Under the pieces are notes generated by a model. The model saw only the letters and a list, made by a program, of their open reading frames with translations, was not told where the DNA came from and ran no database searches. Below, one piece after another: positions 2,522 to 61,697 of a stretch of DNA of 64,000 nucleotides; within the stretch, counting starts at the first letter, position 1; each line of letters starts with the position of its first letter. The DNA is from Gamaleyavirus AN24P2: the sequence record OZ035810.1. The stretch is one strand, 5' to 3'. The position numbers and the translations under genes were made by a program.

Positions 2522-4792
2522 ATGGAACACCAAGACACTTTTAAGCCTTTACCAGACCCGGCTCAATCAGAGAAGTTAACGGACTGGAAGAAGGAACCAA
2601 GTATCCAATTACTGAAGGGTGATTTGGAATCAGCTAAACCTGCTCACGATGCAATCATGGCACAGATTCGTGAGTGGAATGATCTTATGGAAGTTAAGGG
2701 TAAGGCTAAGCCACCAAAGGTGAAGGGACGGTCACAAGTCCAACCTAGACTGGTTCGCCGTCAGGCAGAATGGAGATATGCTCCATTGTCTGAACCATTC
2801 CTCTCTTCTAACAAACTCTTTAAGGTAACTCCGGTTACTTTTGAAGATGAATTAGCTGCACGTCAAAATGAACTGGTTCTTAACTACCAATTCCGTACCC
2901 AGCTTAATAGAGTAAAGCTGGTAGATGATTACGTGCACAGTGTTGTGGATGATGGTACTGGTATTGCTCGTATTGGCTGGGAACGTAAGACTGTTAAGAT
3001 TAAAACAGAAACTCCAGTATTCCAGTTGTATCCAATTGAGAACCAGGAACAAGCAGATGTTCTTCAACAGGCTCTACAGCTTCAGGCAGAAAATCCCCGT
3101 GAGTATGACGAGACAATGCCAGAGGATATTAAGGAAGCTGTTAACTACTTTAATGAAACTGGTGAAGCTACTTATGCAATCCAGACTGGGGTTACTGAAG
3201 TAGAAGTAGAGAAAGCACTGGTTAACAGACCTACCGTTGAAATGCTTAATCCTAATAACGTAGTTATTGACCCAAGCTGTAATGGTGATTTGGATAAGGC
3301 TCTGTATGCAGTTATCTCCTTTGAGACATGCAAAGCAGACCTTATGAAAAACAAAGACCGTTATCACAACCTAGATAAAATTGACTGGGAAAGTTCTAGT
3401 CCTATTACTGACCCAGACCATGAAAGTAAAACCCCTAGCGACTTCCAGTTTAAGGATGCACTACGTAAGAAAGTAGTTGCTTATGAGTACTGGGGATTCT
3501 ATGACATTAATGATGACGGTTCACTGGAACCAATTGTTGCTACCTGGATTGGTTCTACTCTTATTCGTATGGAGAAAAACCCATTCCCTGATGGTAAGTT
3601 ACCTTTGGTAGTTGTTCCCTACATGCCCCGTAAACGTGAACTCTTCGGTGAAGCTGATGCTGAATTGTTAGGAGATAACCAAGCAATTCTCGGTGCAACT
3701 ATTCGTGGAATGATTGACCTGCTGGGTCGTAGTGCAAATGGTCAACGTGGTTATCCTAAGGGAATGTTAGATACACTTAACCGTCGTCGATATGATGATG
3801 GACAAGACTATGAATATAACCCAATGCAAGGTAACCCTAGTCAGGCCATTATGGAACATAAGTTCCCCGAGTTACCTCAATCAGCAATAGTAATGACTCA
3901 GATGCAGAACCAGGAAGCTGAATCACTAACTGGTGTTAAAGCATTTTCCGGTGGTGTAACTGGTTCAGCTTATGGTGATGTAGCTGCTGGTATTCGAGGT
4001 GCACTTGATGCAGCATCCAAACGGGAGATGGCAATTCTTCGTCGATTAGCTAAAGGTATGGCAGACATTGGTACTAAGATTTGTGCAATGAATGCTGTGT
4101 TTTTATCTGAGAAAGAAGTAGTACGTATTACCAATGAGCAGTATGTAGAAATTAATCGTGAAGACCTTAAAGGTAATTTCGACATTGAGGTTGATATTAA
4201 TACTGCTGAAATTGATAACCAGAAATCTCAGGATTTGAGCTTCATGGTTCAAACATTGGGTAATACGGTTGACCAAACTATTACATTATCTCTTGTAGCA
4301 AAGATTGCAGAGCTTAAACGTATGCCAGACCTTGCTCATGAGTTACGTAATTGGAAACCACAGCCAGATCCTATGGAAGAACAGCTTAAGCAGTTAGCAA
4401 TTCAGAAAGCACAACTAGAGAATGAAGAGTTGAAAAGTAAGATTGCACTTAATAATGCTAAGGCTAAAGAAGCTGCTTCCAGTGGTGACCTTAAAGATTT
4501 GGATTATCTGGAACAGGAATCTGGTACTAAACATGCCCGAGATATGGAAAAACAAAAAGCACAATCTCAAGGAAACCAAAACCTTCAGATAACTAAGGCA
4601 TTGACAACACCCGTTAAAGAAGGGGAAACTACCCCCAACATATCTGCTGCTGTTGGATATAATACTTTGACTAACGGGAACTCTATACCAGAACGTGATT
4701 TAGCTGCTCAACAAGACCCGGCTTACTCACTTAGTTCCCAATACTATGACCCTAGCCAAGACCCAGCATCGGCTCTTGGTATGAACCTATAA
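2522..4792 (+). CDS. portal protein
   Basis: 756 aa; size and position upstream of scaffold-like and major capsid genes match N4-type head module. Confidence 0.75.
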
Positions 4793-52990: not shown

Positions 52991-53170
52991 GATAATTACA
53001 TAGTAGATAGCAAAAGCTATCCATCCTGCCATTACAAAGCAGCCAAGTGAGTATGCTCCATAGTAACAGTAAGCAAACTTAGACTTGTGGGCACGAACTA
53101 TCGTAGCCAGAACCAGTACAGATAAAACTATCAGTATTATCTGAGAGATTACTTCAAAAGGGATTAGCAT
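52988..53170 (-). CDS. small membrane protein
   Basis: Internal ATG of ORF 52988..53254 preceded by GGAGGT; two hydrophobic segments. Confidence 0.4.
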   Translation of the reverse strand: MLIPFEVISQIILIVLSVLVLATIVRAHKSKFAYCYYGAYSLGCFVMAGWIAFAIYYVII

Positions 53171-53355
53171 AGTTATTACCTCCAAGCAAAAAATAAAGCC
53201 CCACTCCCGAAGGAATGAGGCTAGTTTATTAATACACTTGCACAGTCCAGCCATTGTAAGAATCTACAAAGACAATCCAGTCATCTTCTGCCCATAGTCT
53301 AGAACAAACTCCTGGGACTTTGAATCTGTATAAACCTTGTCTATAAGCTTCTTTT

Positions 53356-54573
53356 TTAGCTAAGGGCATAATCGGCCTCCAGAATGTCTTGCCAGAGGCT
53401 GTCATCCAGCTTACCAGCAGAGAACTCTTGTCCAAGTACCTGGGACAGGATGAATCCCAGTAGGTCACTCTTCGCAATGTCAGACAGAATCTGATTGTAC
53501 TGACGACGTAGGTCATTACCATAGTTAGGGTGGCAACGGAAGCAGTCATGTACAGTCATTACAGGGAATGGCTTCTTAGGCATAGTGTCAATCATATCTG
53601 CTACTACTTGACGGTCTACCAATGCAATAGTATTCGGGTCAAGGAAGTCTAGGATAGACAGCGACAGGAATCCAGATTTCTCATAATGATTCCAGATTTC
53701 CATAGTTTTCTCTTGGTTCCCTTCAATAACAGGGTATTCACTTGGTCCGATATCGCACAGTTCACGTACATAGGCAACCAGTTTAGGATCGAAGTTACAA
53801 CGACGCAGCATCTCACGTACCACCATTCCATCAATAGAGTGAGTGATGTTAGCAGAAAGCATACGGGTCTTCTCTTCAGTACCCTGAACCATACGAGTGA
53901 TGTCAAATGGCTTACCTAAGAAGTTAACAGTTTGTACTTCTGGAACCATGACCTTAATGACAGCATGGAAGTTGTCAGGTAATACCCATACGTAACGGTT
54001 AGCATCCGGGTTACCACATTGCAGTAAGAACTTGTTCAATGCCCAAGGACCACTAGCAACAGTTTCCATTACATTCTCAAAAGTCTTGAGACGAATACCT
54101 TCACCGAATACTTCTTTAGGCTTGGCTTCTGAACCGTAGAATGCAGTCATAACTGCCTGCTTAGTGTCACTACGTTTAATACGAGATGCTTCACCAAGGA
54201 TGTCCAGCATCTTATGATAGATAACTGTATAAGCATCACGACGTAATGGCTTACCATTCTCTCCCATGTAATTAACTACGTTACACAGTTCAGCAGCAGA
54301 ACGGTCACCAGTCAGGCAAGCCAGTAACTGCAATCCTGACGATGTAGCATCCAGAGCCACGGCATACCCAATAGGCTTACCTGCTTTCATGTCTTTCCAT
54401 GCGTTTAAGCCAGCATAGAACAGTGCAGATTCTTCAGCTTCATCTACCAGATTAAGTAGGTTAGCCTCATTCTCATCGAACCAAGTAATACGTTCATCCC
54501 AGGTCTTTTTATCCAGACCATAGTTATTGGCGATGTCTACTTTCAAGTATTCTTTAGCGGTTAACAGTTGCAT
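53356..54573 (-). CDS. RNA polymerase II large subunit (C-terminal part of a split T7-like RNAP)
   Basis: 405 aa; T7 RNAP motif A-like DATSSGLQLLA and motif C-like VHDCF. Confidence 0.75.
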   Translation of the reverse strand: MQLLTAKEYLKVDIANNYGLDKKTWDERITWFDENEANLLNLVDEAEESALFYAGLNAWKDMKAGKPIGYAVALDATSSGLQLLACLTGDRSAAELCNVVNYMGENGKPLRRDAYTVIYHKMLDILGEASRIKRSDTKQAVMTAFYGSEAKPKEVFGEGIRLKTFENVMETVASGPWALNKFLLQCGNPDANRYVWVLPDNFHAVIKVMVPEVQTVNFLGKPFDITRMVQGTEEKTRMLSANITHSIDGMVVREMLRRCNFDPKLVAYVRELCDIGPSEYPVIEGNQEKTMEIWNHYEKSGFLSLSILDFLDPNTIALVDRQVVADMIDTMPKKPFPVMTVHDCFRCHPNYGNDLRRQYNQILSDIAKSDLLGFILSQVLGQEFSAGKLDDSLWQDILEADYALS

Positions 54574-54630
54574 CTTATGTTCCTTTTGCTTCTTGGCTCC
54601 TCACTATGGAGAGCCTGCTTATTGGATGAA

Positions 54631-54870
54631 TTAGCCAGCATTAAATGATGACAATACTATTCCTGGTTCCACACCTTCGGTGGCAATACCTAGGTACTCG
54701 ATGTGCACTCTCTCAGGAGAGGAACACCAGGCGGAAGACAGATTCCATTCTCCGTCTGGATTAATAAGGCGAGCTTCTTCTTTAGTTTTGGCCGCTACAA
54801 CGGCAGAATCGTATGTATCCCACCCTGTGTTCTCTTCCTGGCTAATAAGCCATAGTTTTAATCTACTCAT
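54631..54870 (-). CDS. hypothetical small protein between the two RNAPII subunit genes
   Basis: 79 aa ORF. Confidence 0.4.
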   Translation of the reverse strand: MSRLKLWLISQEENTGWDTYDSAVVAAKTKEEARLINPDGEWNLSSAWCSSPERVHIEYLGIATEGVEPGIVLSSFNAG

Positions 54871-55681
54871 CGTTTACTAACTCCTTATTAGCGAACTCCA
54901 GTACAGCTTTGTTGTAGCTGGTTCCCTGATAGTTAATGTGATAGCCCTGAGCGTAAGTACGCCCACGTTTGTCATATTTGTGACCTAGTGAGAAGTTATT
55001 ACCTTCTTTGGACACTAACTCCATTACTTCCTTAGCAGTACGGCTGTACTTCTCAAAGGCTTTAACACGTTTCTCATAATCCTGACGGGTTTCGCCCTCT
55101 TTGGGCTTATCCATATTAGGACGGGAGTCTTTTACATAGTTAGCAACGTCCCAGTTAATGCTTAGACGTTGATTATTCATACGGTTGATGTGGTCAAGAC
55201 AGACATCCATCTCATGATGGTTCTTCTTGAGGATGATACTTCCTCTGCTCTCGTAGTAACCTGTATCACGGTTACACAGAACAGGCTTAGGAGCACTTAC
55301 GATAGGTAATGGATATTGGAATGCTTCCAGTTCCATCTGTACATCTTCACTAATCTCATAGATAACACCGAATTTGTCGATGGTAGGGTCATAGTTGAAG
55401 CAGTCATTCTCTGCCATTTTATACAGACAGTCGGCGATGTACTGAGCATCATCTGAGTGGTTCATGAGAGAGCCAATCATAGTCTGAAGGTCAGCACGTT
55501 TATGTAGGGCAATCTGCACCATTGCATCAATGAGCAGCTTATAATCAATTTCCAAATAGGCAGCGAATGCCTTAAAGTCAATTTCTTCGGAGTCCTCAAA
55601 TTCCTTCCTCATACGAGGGAGTAACTGGCATTTATTAAACAGTGTTTCTAAAGTCTTTTGATGCTCAATGGATGCGTACAT
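54863..55681 (-). CDS. RNA polymerase II small subunit (N-terminal part of a split T7-like RNAP)
   Basis: 272 aa; KYDKRGRTYAQGYHINYQG parallels T7 RNAP DWRGRVYAVSMFNPQG region. Confidence 0.7.
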   Translation of the reverse strand: MYASIEHQKTLETLFNKCQLLPRMRKEFEDSEEIDFKAFAAYLEIDYKLLIDAMVQIALHKRADLQTMIGSLMNHSDDAQYIADCLYKMAENDCFNYDPTIDKFGVIYEISEDVQMELEAFQYPLPIVSAPKPVLCNRDTGYYESRGSIILKKNHHEMDVCLDHINRMNNQRLSINWDVANYVKDSRPNMDKPKEGETRQDYEKRVKAFEKYSRTAKEVMELVSKEGNNFSLGHKYDKRGRTYAQGYHINYQGTSYNKAVLEFANKELVNDE

Positions 55682-55704
55682 AGCTTCTTTCCTATATGAG
55701 TTAA

Positions 55705-56181
55705 TTATTTACCGTGATTCGGATGATAGCCGAGAAGATACATAGCTCTTTCTCGTGCTTTACTGGCTTCTTCTATAGTATCGAAGTAGCCTAGGTGTTT
55801 TAGCTTACCGTCTATACTTATTCGTGCACTCCACTTCTGTAACTTTGCATACCACCCGACACCAGTAACACCGGATTTGTTTCTTTTATCTTTGGATTTA
55901 TTCTTCATGTTTCCTGCATGAGTGGTTAAATTAAGATTACTTAGTAGATTGTTGGCTCTGTTCCTGTCGTCATGGTCTATTACCATTCCAGGAGGAACTG
56001 GGCCATTATGCATCTCCCATATGATTACATGGACACGGTATTGCTTTGCTTTATACATGAAGGTGAGATAGCCGGTATGATGCATACTTCCTGCTTCATC
56101 CCCTATTTTTACTCGTACTGCTGGTTTAATCTTCCAGTATATTCTGCCATTGGCATACTCAAAGATTTCATGCCAATTCAT
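55705..56181 (-). mobile_element. free-standing HNH homing endonuclease with AP2 DNA-binding domain
   Basis: 158 aa; HNH motif MVIDHDDRNRANNLLSNLNLTTHAGNMKN; AP2-like segment SGVTGVGWYAKLQKWSARISIDGKLKHLGYFDTIEEASKARERA. Confidence 0.75.
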
Positions 56182-56234
56182 CGCATATTCTCCTAAATGT
56201 GATTAATAACCAAAAGCTGCGGAGCAGCTATTAC

Positions 56235-56510
56235 CTAACGTTTAGTCCAAAAGGTAATACGAATACTGTTCTCTTGACCAAGGTAGTCAATACGTACATA
56301 TAAACCATTACCGCTAAACTCGTTATTTTTCTTCTGGTAAGGCCATACCAGACTACGCATAGGTATTTTAATTAAACCAGATATATGACCTAGTTTAGTA
56401 CGACCCTTTAGTTCGTTTTGTAATGCACAATAGATATCATGCCGTGTAAGTGCCCTGGCTCTGACTTGAGCAGCCCATAGTTCTTCATATGTCATTTGGT
56501 AGTCTCCCAA
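56235..56510 (-). CDS. hypothetical early protein
   Basis: 91 aa ORF. Confidence 0.4.
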   Translation of the reverse strand: MGDYQMTYEELWAAQVRARALTRHDIYCALQNELKGRTKLGHISGLIKIPMRSLVWPYQKKNNEFSGNGLYVRIDYLGQENSIRITFWTKR

Positions 56511-56851
56511 TAGTTGAAGGCATCACCTAAGTGTTTACGCCATGCTTCAGGTAACAATACGTTGCCTGTAACATTAATGAACTGATATGGGTCTAGATAG
56601 TCATTACTCATGACTTTGAAATCCCATTGTGGATTGGCAGATGCATAGGCAATGAAGCCTTCAATGAAGCCATAGATAGCACCCTCTTTGATACGGTTAC
56701 CATTGCCATCTCTTACTGGGATAGCAAAGCTATTACCATAATGACCATAGGCCATACCCCAACGAGCACCGTGCTTCTTATAAGCTAACTTGGCAGCAGC
56801 ATTGGTATGCTGACCTAATGTGTTAGTAGTGAATACTAAGATTTCTTTCAT
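56492..56851 (-). CDS. hypothetical early protein (possible Rossmann-like nucleotide-binding fold)
   Basis: 119 aa; N-terminal ILVFTTNTLGQHTNAAAKLAYKKHGA pattern. Confidence 0.4.
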   Translation of the reverse strand: MKEILVFTTNTLGQHTNAAAKLAYKKHGARWGMAYGHYGNSFAIPVRDGNGNRIKEGAIYGFIEGFIAYASANPQWDFKVMSNDYLDPYQFINVTGNVLLPEAWRKHLGDAFNYWETTK

Positions 56852-57048
56852 TTACACGCCTCTCTATTGTAAGTATAAGCAGCTTGTGGAGTCATATTGT
56901 TATATGTACAAGTCATTTCTAAATAAGTAAGAGCATACTCATGATCACGTTGTTCCTTCTTGGTTCGACAATGACCACATTTACCATCCCATTGGGATAC
57001 ATGACCCTTACCACACTTGCATTGTTTATCCATTTGAATTCTCCACAA
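56848..57048 (-). CDS. Cys-rich zinc-binding small protein
   Basis: 66 aa; CKCGKGH...CGHC. Confidence 0.4.
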   Translation of the reverse strand: MWRIQMDKQCKCGKGHVSQWDGKCGHCRTKKEQRDHEYALTYLEMTCTYNNMTPQAAYTYNREACK

Positions 57049-57406
57049 AATAGTTATACATAGCCTTCACTAGCTTCTCTTTAATAACCTCACCATGACA
57101 TGGTTTTGGATAACAGAAGCATTGTAAGGCTAGTCCTTTTTCATCAATGGCTTTATTACCCAGACGATTCAGTTCATCCAGTACAACTGGATTACCTTTA
57201 TCAATCTGCTCCTGTAACCAGACCTTATACTTAGCAATTACTTGCTCTCTGGTTCCATGTTTACCAATGACGAATGGATTGCCTAATGGTGATCCACGTC
57301 CAATATACTCACCGGATTTACCGTGATGTTTATTAACAATAGTAATAGGACGTGCAGATACACCTAGCAAAGCATTGGTGTCATCACCTAATTGGATAGT
57401 CTTCAT
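57026..57406 (-). CDS. DUF4326-like protein
   Basis: 126 aa; YIGRGSPLGNPF and CFCYPKPCHG motifs as I recall them for DUF4326. Confidence 0.45.
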   Translation of the reverse strand: MKTIQLGDDTNALLGVSARPITIVNKHHGKSGEYIGRGSPLGNPFVIGKHGTREQVIAKYKVWLQEQIDKGNPVVLDELNRLGNKAIDEKGLALQCFCYPKPCHGEVIKEKLVKAMYNYFVENSNG

Positions 57407-57717
57407 GGTTTAAGTACCTGAAATGCGAACACAGGACGTTTACTACGCCACTGGTTCATAGCTAATTCACTAGTTTCAGAACCATCATGTAAGTCATAAA
57501 TAAATGAGATTACATAGTCTGGTTCTTCCGGGAAGTTCTCTGTAGAGAATGGTAAACCTGATTCCTTAAGGATAGGAACCAGAGGAGATTCAGCATTACA
57601 GTAGAGAGTAAACTCTTCATTGAATGCCTGGCTTGTTTGAGATACATAATCAATATTACGCATCATCTTATCTACATCAGTAAATGTAGAATCATGAACT
57701 ACTAGAATAGTTTTCAT
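57403..57717 (-). CDS. hypothetical early protein
   Basis: 104 aa ORF, 4-nt overlap with neighbour. Confidence 0.4.
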   Translation of the reverse strand: MKTILVVHDSTFTDVDKMMRNIDYVSQTSQAFNEEFTLYCNAESPLVPILKESGLPFSTENFPEEPDYVISFIYDLHDGSETSELAMNQWRSKRPVFAFQVLKP

Positions 57718-60588: not shown

Positions 60589-60722
60589 TTTGTACTCTCC
60601 AGATAAATGATTATTTGATTGATGGGTTTGTCTGTCGGTGACTAAACCCAAGAAAAGACTTAAGATTTCAATGATTAGTGGATGCATTTACATCATCCAT
60701 AAGACGCGGAGCGTCCTGGTTT

Positions 60723-61496: not shown

Positions 61497-61697
61497 GATG
61501 ATAGCTCCAATAGTTGATGATAGGACGACATGTCCATAACATGCGGAGCATGTGTAACGTGTAGGGTGGGGTAGGGTAGCGGCTACACCGTCAACATACC
61601 GGGGGGGCTAGTTGAGTGTAATGGTGTAGCCTCAGCCACACCACTGTAGCTGTACATAGCTATGACCAAAATGGTATGCAAAAATATGATAGCTATC

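Follow-up and report, generated by a model that had tools for sequence, protein, structure and literature searches.

Which kind of gene stands at the 5' edge of the RNA polymerase II (RNAPII) genes of the coliphage AN24P2, and how did it come to be placed there? AN24P2 is a G7C-like member of the Schitoviridae, the N4-like phages. Its GenBank record (OZ035740.1; 71,225 bp), to which the DNA studied here is 100% identical, is unannotated, and the analysis described here was carried out on a stretch of 64,000 nucleotides of its DNA, referred to in the following as the window. The RNAPII of phage N4 is a heterodimer of gp15 and gp16, two proteins that are homologous to the two halves of the T7 RNA polymerase (PMC4496689). 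In the window, the genes for the counterparts of these proteins and their neighbours are all located on the - strand, and the direction of transcription is therefore from high to low coordinates. Read in this direction, the locus has the following composition:

56235..56510, - strand: upstream neighbour, a gene for a 91-amino-acid protein of PHROG_14487, which directly precedes the RNAPII gene in relatives that lack the gene under study.
55705..56181 (stop codon included), - strand: the gene under study, an ATG-started ORF of 158 amino acids, predicted to be a free-standing HNH-AP2 homing endonuclease gene.
54863..55681, - strand: RNAPII small subunit (N4 gp15-like), 272 amino acids; PHROG_2166, 'N4-like RNA polymerase' (E 1.4e-114).
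54631..54870, - strand: 79-amino-acid ORF between the RNAPII subunit genes; PHROG_5444.
53356..54573, - strand: RNAPII large subunit (N4 gp16-like), 405 amino acids; Pfam RNA_pol (E 8.5e-14) and PHROG_2051 (E 1.5e-174).

The large-subunit gene displays a peculiarity of its own. Within its otherwise conserved sequence, the stretch 53600-53800 forms a sharply bounded mosaic patch. Five relatives cover this patch; identity is only 59-77% for four of them and 94-95% for UE-S5b. No endonuclease gene lies adjacent to it in AN24P2.

A reading of the ORF at 55705-56181 made from the sequence alone had ascribed to it a clear HNH nuclease motif and an AP2-type DNA-binding domain. The two parts of the protein are encoded as follows:

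55906..56040, - strand: HNH_3 nuclease core, amino acids 48-92, with the motif ..IDH70DD..NN..N82L..N91..N94 (Pfam HNH_3 match).
55741..55875, - strand: AP2-type DNA-binding domain, amino acids 103-147, three strands plus a helix (Pfam match below the cut-off, together with the predicted fold).

The assignment of the 158-amino-acid protein to the HNH nucleases is firm. Pfam HNH_3 (PF13392) matches amino acids 48-92 with an E-value of 3.3e-17 and with 62.3 bits, a score that passes the gathering cut-off of 24.8, and the profile PHROG_99 ('HNH endonuclease') covers the full length of the protein (E 5.8e-61). The protein possesses the catalytic/metal-binding residues that characterise a beta-beta-alpha-metal motif (D-H ... 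N ... N/H), and conservation across 28 aligned homologues is pronounced at these positions, with H70 and N94 invariant and D69, N82 and N91 retained in at least 90% of the sequences. A sequence search of the PDB returned a sole match, I-HmuI (1U3E), the nicking homing endonuclease of the Bacillus phage SPO1 (E 1.1e-4; about 22% identity), in an alignment that spans the ..DH..NN..NL..N.. core and in which the DH..N..N segments pair up. An AlphaFold2 model calculated from the 28-homologue alignment (mean pLDDT 86) exhibits beta-hairpins at the N-terminus, a nuclease core of the beta-beta-alpha type and, at the C-terminus, a sheet of three strands (108-111, 116-123 and 126-133) followed by a helix (136-149). 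When this model was compared with the PDB by Foldseek, I-HmuI was again the top match (E 1.8e-4; probability 1.00). Both proteins have the N-terminal beta-hairpins and the DH..N..N core in common, but the global TM-score is only 0.43 because their domains are arranged differently, and the C-terminal modules of I-HmuI are of a helical/HTH type and not AP2.

The AP2 part of the claim fared differently in the HMM search. Pfam AP2 (PF00847) matches amino acids 103-147 with an E-value of 8.5e-5 and 23.2 bits, short of the 33.3 bits that the curated cut-off demands, and the domain is likewise weak in Pfam in the homologues encoded on four metagenomic contigs (L025-L028) discussed below. What stands in its favour is the predicted fold, which supports the presence of an AP2-type domain: the C-terminal part of the model superposes on the AP2 domains of Arabidopsis TEM1 (7ET5; rmsd 1.2 A, 47 columns) and AtERF1 (1GCC; rmsd 1.9 A, 52 columns, TMt 0.67, probability 1.00), with further AP2 matches to Plasmodium 3IGM and WRINKLED1 (7WQ5), the Foldseek E-values of the AP2 matches being weak (only 0.09-0.12).

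According to PMC2248197 and PMC10448857 (the latter citing Magnani et al. 2004), the combination of HNH and AP2 is a recognised architecture of phage homing endonucleases. Free-standing members of this family in the Xanthomonas phages Xp10, OP1 and Xop411 (PMC2248197) and the 'IPA-HNH' homing endonuclease genes (HEGs) of ICP1 (PMC10448857) share with the window protein an N-terminal HNH/HNN part, a C-terminal AP2 part and a size of about 160 amino acids. The likeness extends to their free-standing nature, their sporadic occurrence and their position at boundaries of genetic exchange, and the window protein matches the same Pfam pair and PHROG_99. What sets it apart from the known HNH-AP2 HEGs is the specificity of its lineage for one site, the 5' edge of the RNAPII small-subunit gene. 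The papers cited here report no mapped cleavage site for any HNH-AP2 family member. An HNH protein of the terminase-associated type (HK97 gp74) was considered as well, and was ruled out by the position of the gene in the early region, beside the polymerase genes, and by the AP2 domain. A tblastn search of the protein against the 64-kb window for paralogues recovered the gene itself only.

The gene had further been described as inserted beside a conserved gene, immediately upstream of that for the RNAPII small subunit, and the comparison with relatives confirms both points with precision. The HNH stop codon is located 23 nt before the ATG (55681) of the PHROG_2166 ORF, the protein product of which shares 91-96% amino acid identity with its homologues in eleven close relatives (L001-L011). 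In the HNH-less phages UE-S5b and ZQ2, a spacer of 53 nt lies between the PHROG_14487 gene and the polymerase gene. An alignment of the junction reveals exactly 500 extra nucleotides in the window (55682..56181), and the spacer is continuous in the HNH-less relatives. The ATG of the HNH gene takes the place of the polymerase ATG of UE-S5b, ZQ2, Bas96 and 24-32N, behind the same ...TTAGGAGAATATGCG-ATG. Two elements that flank the HNH gene on either side are of note in this context:

56188..56193, - strand: ribosome-binding site GGAGAA, which serves the HNH gene here and the RNAPII small-subunit gene in HNH-less relatives.
55682..55704, - strand: 23-nt spacer that arrived with the HNH gene and from which the RNAPII small-subunit gene obtains its new ribosome-binding site, AGGAAAGAAGCT (junction alignment).

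The 14 nt of this spacer that are nearest to the polymerase ATG (AGGAAAGAAGCT and its flanks) are identical, and the remainder is nearly so, in all six HNH-carrying loci; the HNH-linked spacer differs from the 5'UTR of the polymerase alleles that are described below as class A.

The insertion thus lies outside coding sequence, between two genes, and the HNH gene possesses its own ATG and ribosome-binding site. A scan of 53000-57500 with Rfam for a group I or group II intron or any other RNA family returned two chance-level matches, neither of which is an intron, and the HNH gene is therefore free-standing. In this respect it differs from I-HmuI, which is encoded inside a group I intron of a DNA polymerase gene. 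A gapless search for flanking direct repeats or a duplicated 5'UTR yielded nothing meaningful. In a gapped alignment of the 36 nt upstream of both ATGs, the window scored weakly above shuffled sequences (59 of 2000 reach its score), and L025-L028 did not score above them; no target-site duplication is claimed for the HNH insertion. In phage 24-32N, the spacer upstream of the small-subunit gene is occupied, between ribosome-binding site and hairpin (see below), by an unrelated ORF of 77 amino acids without a Pfam match (L002 2779-3012).

How widely is the gene distributed at this site? When 54600-57100 was used as a megablast query, 65 phage records matched, and the HNH part was covered by AN24P2 alone. 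Moreover, an HNH gene upstream of the small subunit was found in none of the 22 HNH-less relatives examined at this junction (L001-L004 from GenBank, L005-L024 from IMG/VR). The presence/absence comparison that the sequence-only reading had proposed has consequently come out against a universal presence of the gene. A tblastn search with the protein brought up 2,612 records with relatives, all of which, except for AN24P2, are less than 60% identical; the Gamaleyaviruses that appear in both searches (UE-S5b, Mimir124, PD38 and K57alpha1.2) carry HNH relatives at other loci, and the closest annotated phage homologues (at most 52% identical) are found at other loci as well.

A large protein collection holds closer relatives of the HNH protein (78-90% identical). 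Four Gamaleyavirus-like metagenomic contigs, L025 (72 kb), L026, L027 and L028, contain intact copies of the gene (79-90% amino acid identity) at the identical site, 21-23 nt before the ATG of the small subunit, while the upstream neighbour varies. The small-subunit gene of L026 is apparently split, and the coverage of this contig is about 1x according to its name. The site is likewise occupied in a fifth contig, L033 (OEQM01000028.1), by a copy of 98% identity whose reading frame is broken: a 2-nt (GC) insertion after codon 33 (about 686-688) truncates the protein, and this frameshift reflects either a decaying copy or an assembly error.

The presence of the HNH gene is accompanied by a peculiar form of the polymerase gene that follows it:

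55613..55681, - strand: patch of divergent sequence linked to the HNH gene ('class B'), spanning codons 1-23 of the small-subunit gene and recognised by a drop in identity against relatives.

The identity of the polymerase gene in the window to every relative is only 74-78% over its first 100 nt and rises to 97-100% over the 100 nt that follow, and from codon 24 onwards the gene is identical to that of UE-S5b. In the 18 HNH-less class A alleles that were compared, codon 6 is GAA, codon 8 is CAG, codon 10 is CAR (Gln) and codon 18 is AAT (Asn) without exception (18/18 at each position), and codon 3 specifies Ser in 15 of the 18; the window has GAG, CAA, ACT and TGC at the first four of these positions, and at codon 3 the change is from TCA (Ser) to GCA (Ala). 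The changed codons barely vary among the HNH-less relatives, even among those that are only 70% identical overall. Class B can be defined as the new spacer, the start ATG TAC GCA TCC ATT GAG CA, a codon 10 that does not encode Gln and, mostly, TTA as codon 11. It is found at all six HNH-carrying loci, which are identical in codons 1-6, and class A is found at all 22 HNH-less loci that were fetched and in at least 54 GenBank records, an association to which loci contribute that are not all phylogenetically independent.

Class B alleles also exist without an HNH gene. A scan for the 20-mer at the class B start found no exact match in IMG/VR and nine matches in metagenome contigs; five of the latter (L029, L032, L034, L035 and L036) encode no proteins of the locus and look like chance matches. 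The scan brought to light four HNH-less class B alleles (L030, L031, L037 and that of phage phi G17), in none of which a remnant of the HNH gene is present. Such alleles represent either empty sites after gene loss or naturally resistant alleles, and they could be ancestral and not products of gene loss. The locus of phi G17 (L038, MH358458.1; 2473-3398) is the most compact, with no insert either upstream of the small subunit or between the subunit genes, and its class B allele is a candidate for a naturally resistant or a post-loss allele. Codon 10 occurs in seven forms among class B alleles versus CAA and CAG only in class A, a diversity that would fit either an escape from recognition or a relaxed constraint. 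The patch 55613..55681 is probably a co-conversion tract and/or an immunised target site, and a class A-like site occurs nowhere in the 64-kb window.

A particularly instructive case is the contig L027. It is 96-100% identical to phage G7C from nucleotide 102 of the polymerase gene onwards and 100% identical to it in the 50 nt before the HNH gene. In nucleotides 2-51 of its polymerase gene, the identity to G7C falls to only 66%, but that to L026 reaches 92%; elsewhere, the polymerase genes of L026 and L027 are about 74% identical. By this pattern of identity, L027 has a G7C-like backbone to which a divergent donor has contributed the HNH gene and about 90 nt at the 5' end of the polymerase gene, with a switch point at about nucleotide 90 of the polymerase gene. 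Judged by its sequence, the L027 mosaic bears the classical signature of co-conversion, and a sharp patch of the same kind distinguishes the window from UE-S5b. L037 has no HNH gene and yet carries the patch of L027 (100% identical over nucleotides 34-70).

The five intact HNH copies differ from each other at a proportion of 0.64-0.84 of their synonymous sites (pS) and of 0.07-0.13 of their non-synonymous sites (pN); these proportions are given instead of dS because the synonymous sites are saturated. As pN is well below pS (pN/pS about 0.1-0.2), the HNH protein has been under strong purifying selection. For the pair of the window and L025, pS amounts to 0.78 in the HNH gene versus 0.33 in the small-subunit and 0.31 in the large-subunit gene, and the history of the HNH gene is hence discordant with that of its flanks. 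The five intact copies have diverged at least as deeply as the backbones, and a long residence with many losses accounts for part of the distribution of the gene.

The region between the PHROG_14487 gene and the HNH gene contains an element that may bear on the expression of both the HNH and the polymerase genes:

56211..56229 (hairpin 56215-56229), + strand (template strand): hairpin AGCTGC-GGA-GCAGCT, preceded by a C (56211); candidate early promoter for a virion RNAP of the N4 type.

The determinants of the early promoters read by the N4 virion RNAP are -8G, -9C, -10G, -11G, -12A and +1C (PMC4496689), and all of them are matched when the template strand of the window is read with the C at 56211 as +1. 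Two further hairpins with the same GC-GGA-GC core are located on the same strand (60703-60715 and 61539-61553), and a C is found exactly 8 nt 5' of the core in all three instances (56211, 60698 and 61535). The stem of the hairpin at 56215 covaries among relatives (AGCTGC/GCAGCT, GGTGC/GCACC, AGCAGC/GCTGCT), and its core is invariant. The count of the heptamer alone is not significant (3 found versus 2.2 expected). On the coding strand, no sigma-70 promoter was found for the HNH gene. From these sequence features we infer that the hairpin at 56215 could act as an N4-type early promoter driving the HNH and RNAPII genes, and the three hairpins may be three early promoters of AN24P2. The hairpin at 56215 also scores as terminator-like on the - strand, and it may be a terminator rather than a promoter. 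If the promoter reading is true, the HNH gene is the first to be transcribed from a promoter that, in other phages, directly drives the RNAPII genes.

Orthologues at the same site in divergent backbones, the linked polymerase patch, the mosaic recombinant and the frameshifted copy all bear out the suggestion that the gene belongs to a mobile homing endonuclease. We consider it likely that the ORF is a free-standing HNH(HNN)-AP2 homing endonuclease gene, with cleavage as the predicted activity of its product, and that a G7C/N4-like coliphage was invaded by it at the 5' edge of the gp15-like gene. In the course of events that we propose, transcription of the HNH gene would begin with the onset of infection, driven by the hairpin early promoter. 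During a mixed infection with a relative that carries class A, this allele would be bound by the AP2 domain and nicked or cut by the HNH domain, which resembles that of I-HmuI. The target would be situated around the polymerase start, roughly from -12 to +33, and would read GGAGAATATGCG ATG TAC TCA TCY ATT GAA CAT CAG AAG CAR CTN. Recombinational repair from the HNH-carrying genome would then copy in the gene along with about 70-90 nt of the 5' end of the donor polymerase gene. The carrier itself would owe its immunity to the insertion, which splits the site, and to the changes in codons 3, 6 and 10-11. As a side effect, the competitor would suffer from the cut at the beginning of its middle-transcription polymerase gene, and marker exclusion against related phages by the putative nuclease, raised as a possibility in the sequence-only reading, may reasonably be supposed.

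The strong purifying selection on the HNH protein could also be viewed in another light, namely that of a domesticated protein that is kept for the benefit of the phage, either as an AP2-type regulator of the RNAPII operon or as a weapon against the middle-transcription polymerase gene of a competitor, with the spread of the gene being secondary. Besides the pN/pS values, the promoter-proximal position of the gene in what would be (given the candidate promoter) the earliest transcription unit speaks for this proposal, and there is a precedent in PhiPA3 gp210, an HNH nickase encoded in an intron of an RNAP gene that nicks the homologous gene of PhiKZ and confers a competitive advantage (PMC11620839). 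The two systems can be likened by description, as each ties an HNH nuclease to the phage's own RNA polymerase gene; however, gp210 lacks an AP2 domain and is encoded in an intron of a jumbo-phage gene for a beta-like subunit of a multisubunit RNAP, whereas the window gene is free-standing and placed at the start codon of a split RNAP of the T7-like type. We regard domestication as doubtful: about 98% of the sequenced relatives lack the gene and grow well without it, one copy (L033) is frameshifted, and the intact nuclease motif makes a pure regulator unlikely. A role in competition, on the other hand, is compatible with homing and does not exclude it.

It may also be asked whether the gene is an old resident that has been inherited vertically, has repeatedly been lost and is no longer mobile, so that the class B patch would be nothing but lineage history reshuffled by ordinary homologous recombination. 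The saturation of the synonymous sites indeed marks the gene as old, G7C-like genomes are fine-scale mosaics (bioRxiv 10.1101/542787), and the mosaic patch in the large-subunit gene has arisen with no HNH gene nearby. Yet two backbones that are independent of each other, those of the window and L027, have their recombination switch right at the HNH gene; in the case of L027, the donor lineage is about 74% identical, a distance that plain homologous recombination seldom spans unbroken. Furthermore, strong purifying selection on a non-essential and sporadic gene fits continued homing. An immobile resident is, in our view, quite improbable. That the ORF is an inactive relic of a past invasion whose frame happens still to be open is the least credible explanation and very improbable indeed: decay does occur in this lineage, as the near-identical but frameshifted copy of L033 indicates, but the copy in the window is full length and keeps all conserved HNH and AP2 residues, its predicted structure is confident, and purifying selection is strong across the family.

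The reading as an invading homing endonuclease gene places the site upstream of gp15 alongside other mobile elements of the RNAPII locus. Endonuclease genes have a second hotspot in the gap that separates the small- and large-subunit genes, where the relatives carry at least four unrelated ones: a NUMOD1 protein (G7C, Bas96), related proteins of about 203 amino acids (pSb-1, L027), and two distinct HNH_3-AP2 families. The endonuclease genes in this gap are located as follows:

L003, 930-1511: gap endonuclease gene.
L010, 3821-4399: gap endonuclease gene.
L009, 3816-4430: gap endonuclease gene.
L027, 3109-3717: gap endonuclease gene.
L008, 3819-4325: gap endonuclease gene.
L028, 2386-2895: gap endonuclease gene.
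L011, 3816-4322: gap endonuclease gene.
L026, 5272-5778: gap endonuclease gene.

The window and many relatives have the 79-amino-acid ORF (54631-54870 in the window) in the gap instead. In L008, the inserted HNH-AP2 gene is followed by a duplicated fragment of the small-subunit C-terminus (4337-4399; amino acids 252-272, 90% identical), which, by its sequence, looks like the footprint that the insertion left on entering the small-subunit gene at its 3' end. A group I intron that is spliced and contains an endonuclease gene is present in g16 of N4G2/Sz33 (bioRxiv 10.1101/542787). The g16 intron and the gap genes of G7C, Bas96 and pSb-1 resemble the window gene in that they occur in the same genus and at the same essential locus, with a presence/absence polymorphism. 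All of them differ from it both in their site and in their protein products; those of the gap genes are either a NUMOD1 protein or HNH-AP2 proteins that are 30-34% identical to that of the window. The literature on the RNAPII locus cited here makes no mention of the insertion site upstream of gp15 or of the HNH lineage found in the window.

One might go a step further, in a tentative manner, and envisage the HNH nuclease as an early weapon in conflicts between phages, and more than a parasite, that would be expressed from the first promoter which the injected virion polymerase uses, cut the RNAPII start of a competitor and block its middle transcription within minutes; the three independent mobile-element sites in the locus would fit a history in which the insertion of an endonuclease gene split the N4-type RNAPII. 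We offer this extension as a possibility on the speculative side.

For the G7C-like phages, the HNH gene provides a third site for mobile elements in the RNAPII locus, upstream of gp15, in addition to the gp15-gp16 gap and the g16 intron, and it contributes an annotation to the unannotated genome of AN24P2. Several stages of the cycle of an endonuclease gene can be viewed within one small data set, comprising an intact copy, a frameshifted copy and empty variant sites. Class A (possibly sensitive) and class B (possibly resistant) constitute a natural allele pair that can be used to probe the specificity of HNH-AP2 proteins. The general understanding of homing elements is unchanged by these findings, which add a member to the well-known group of HNH-AP2 homing endonucleases.
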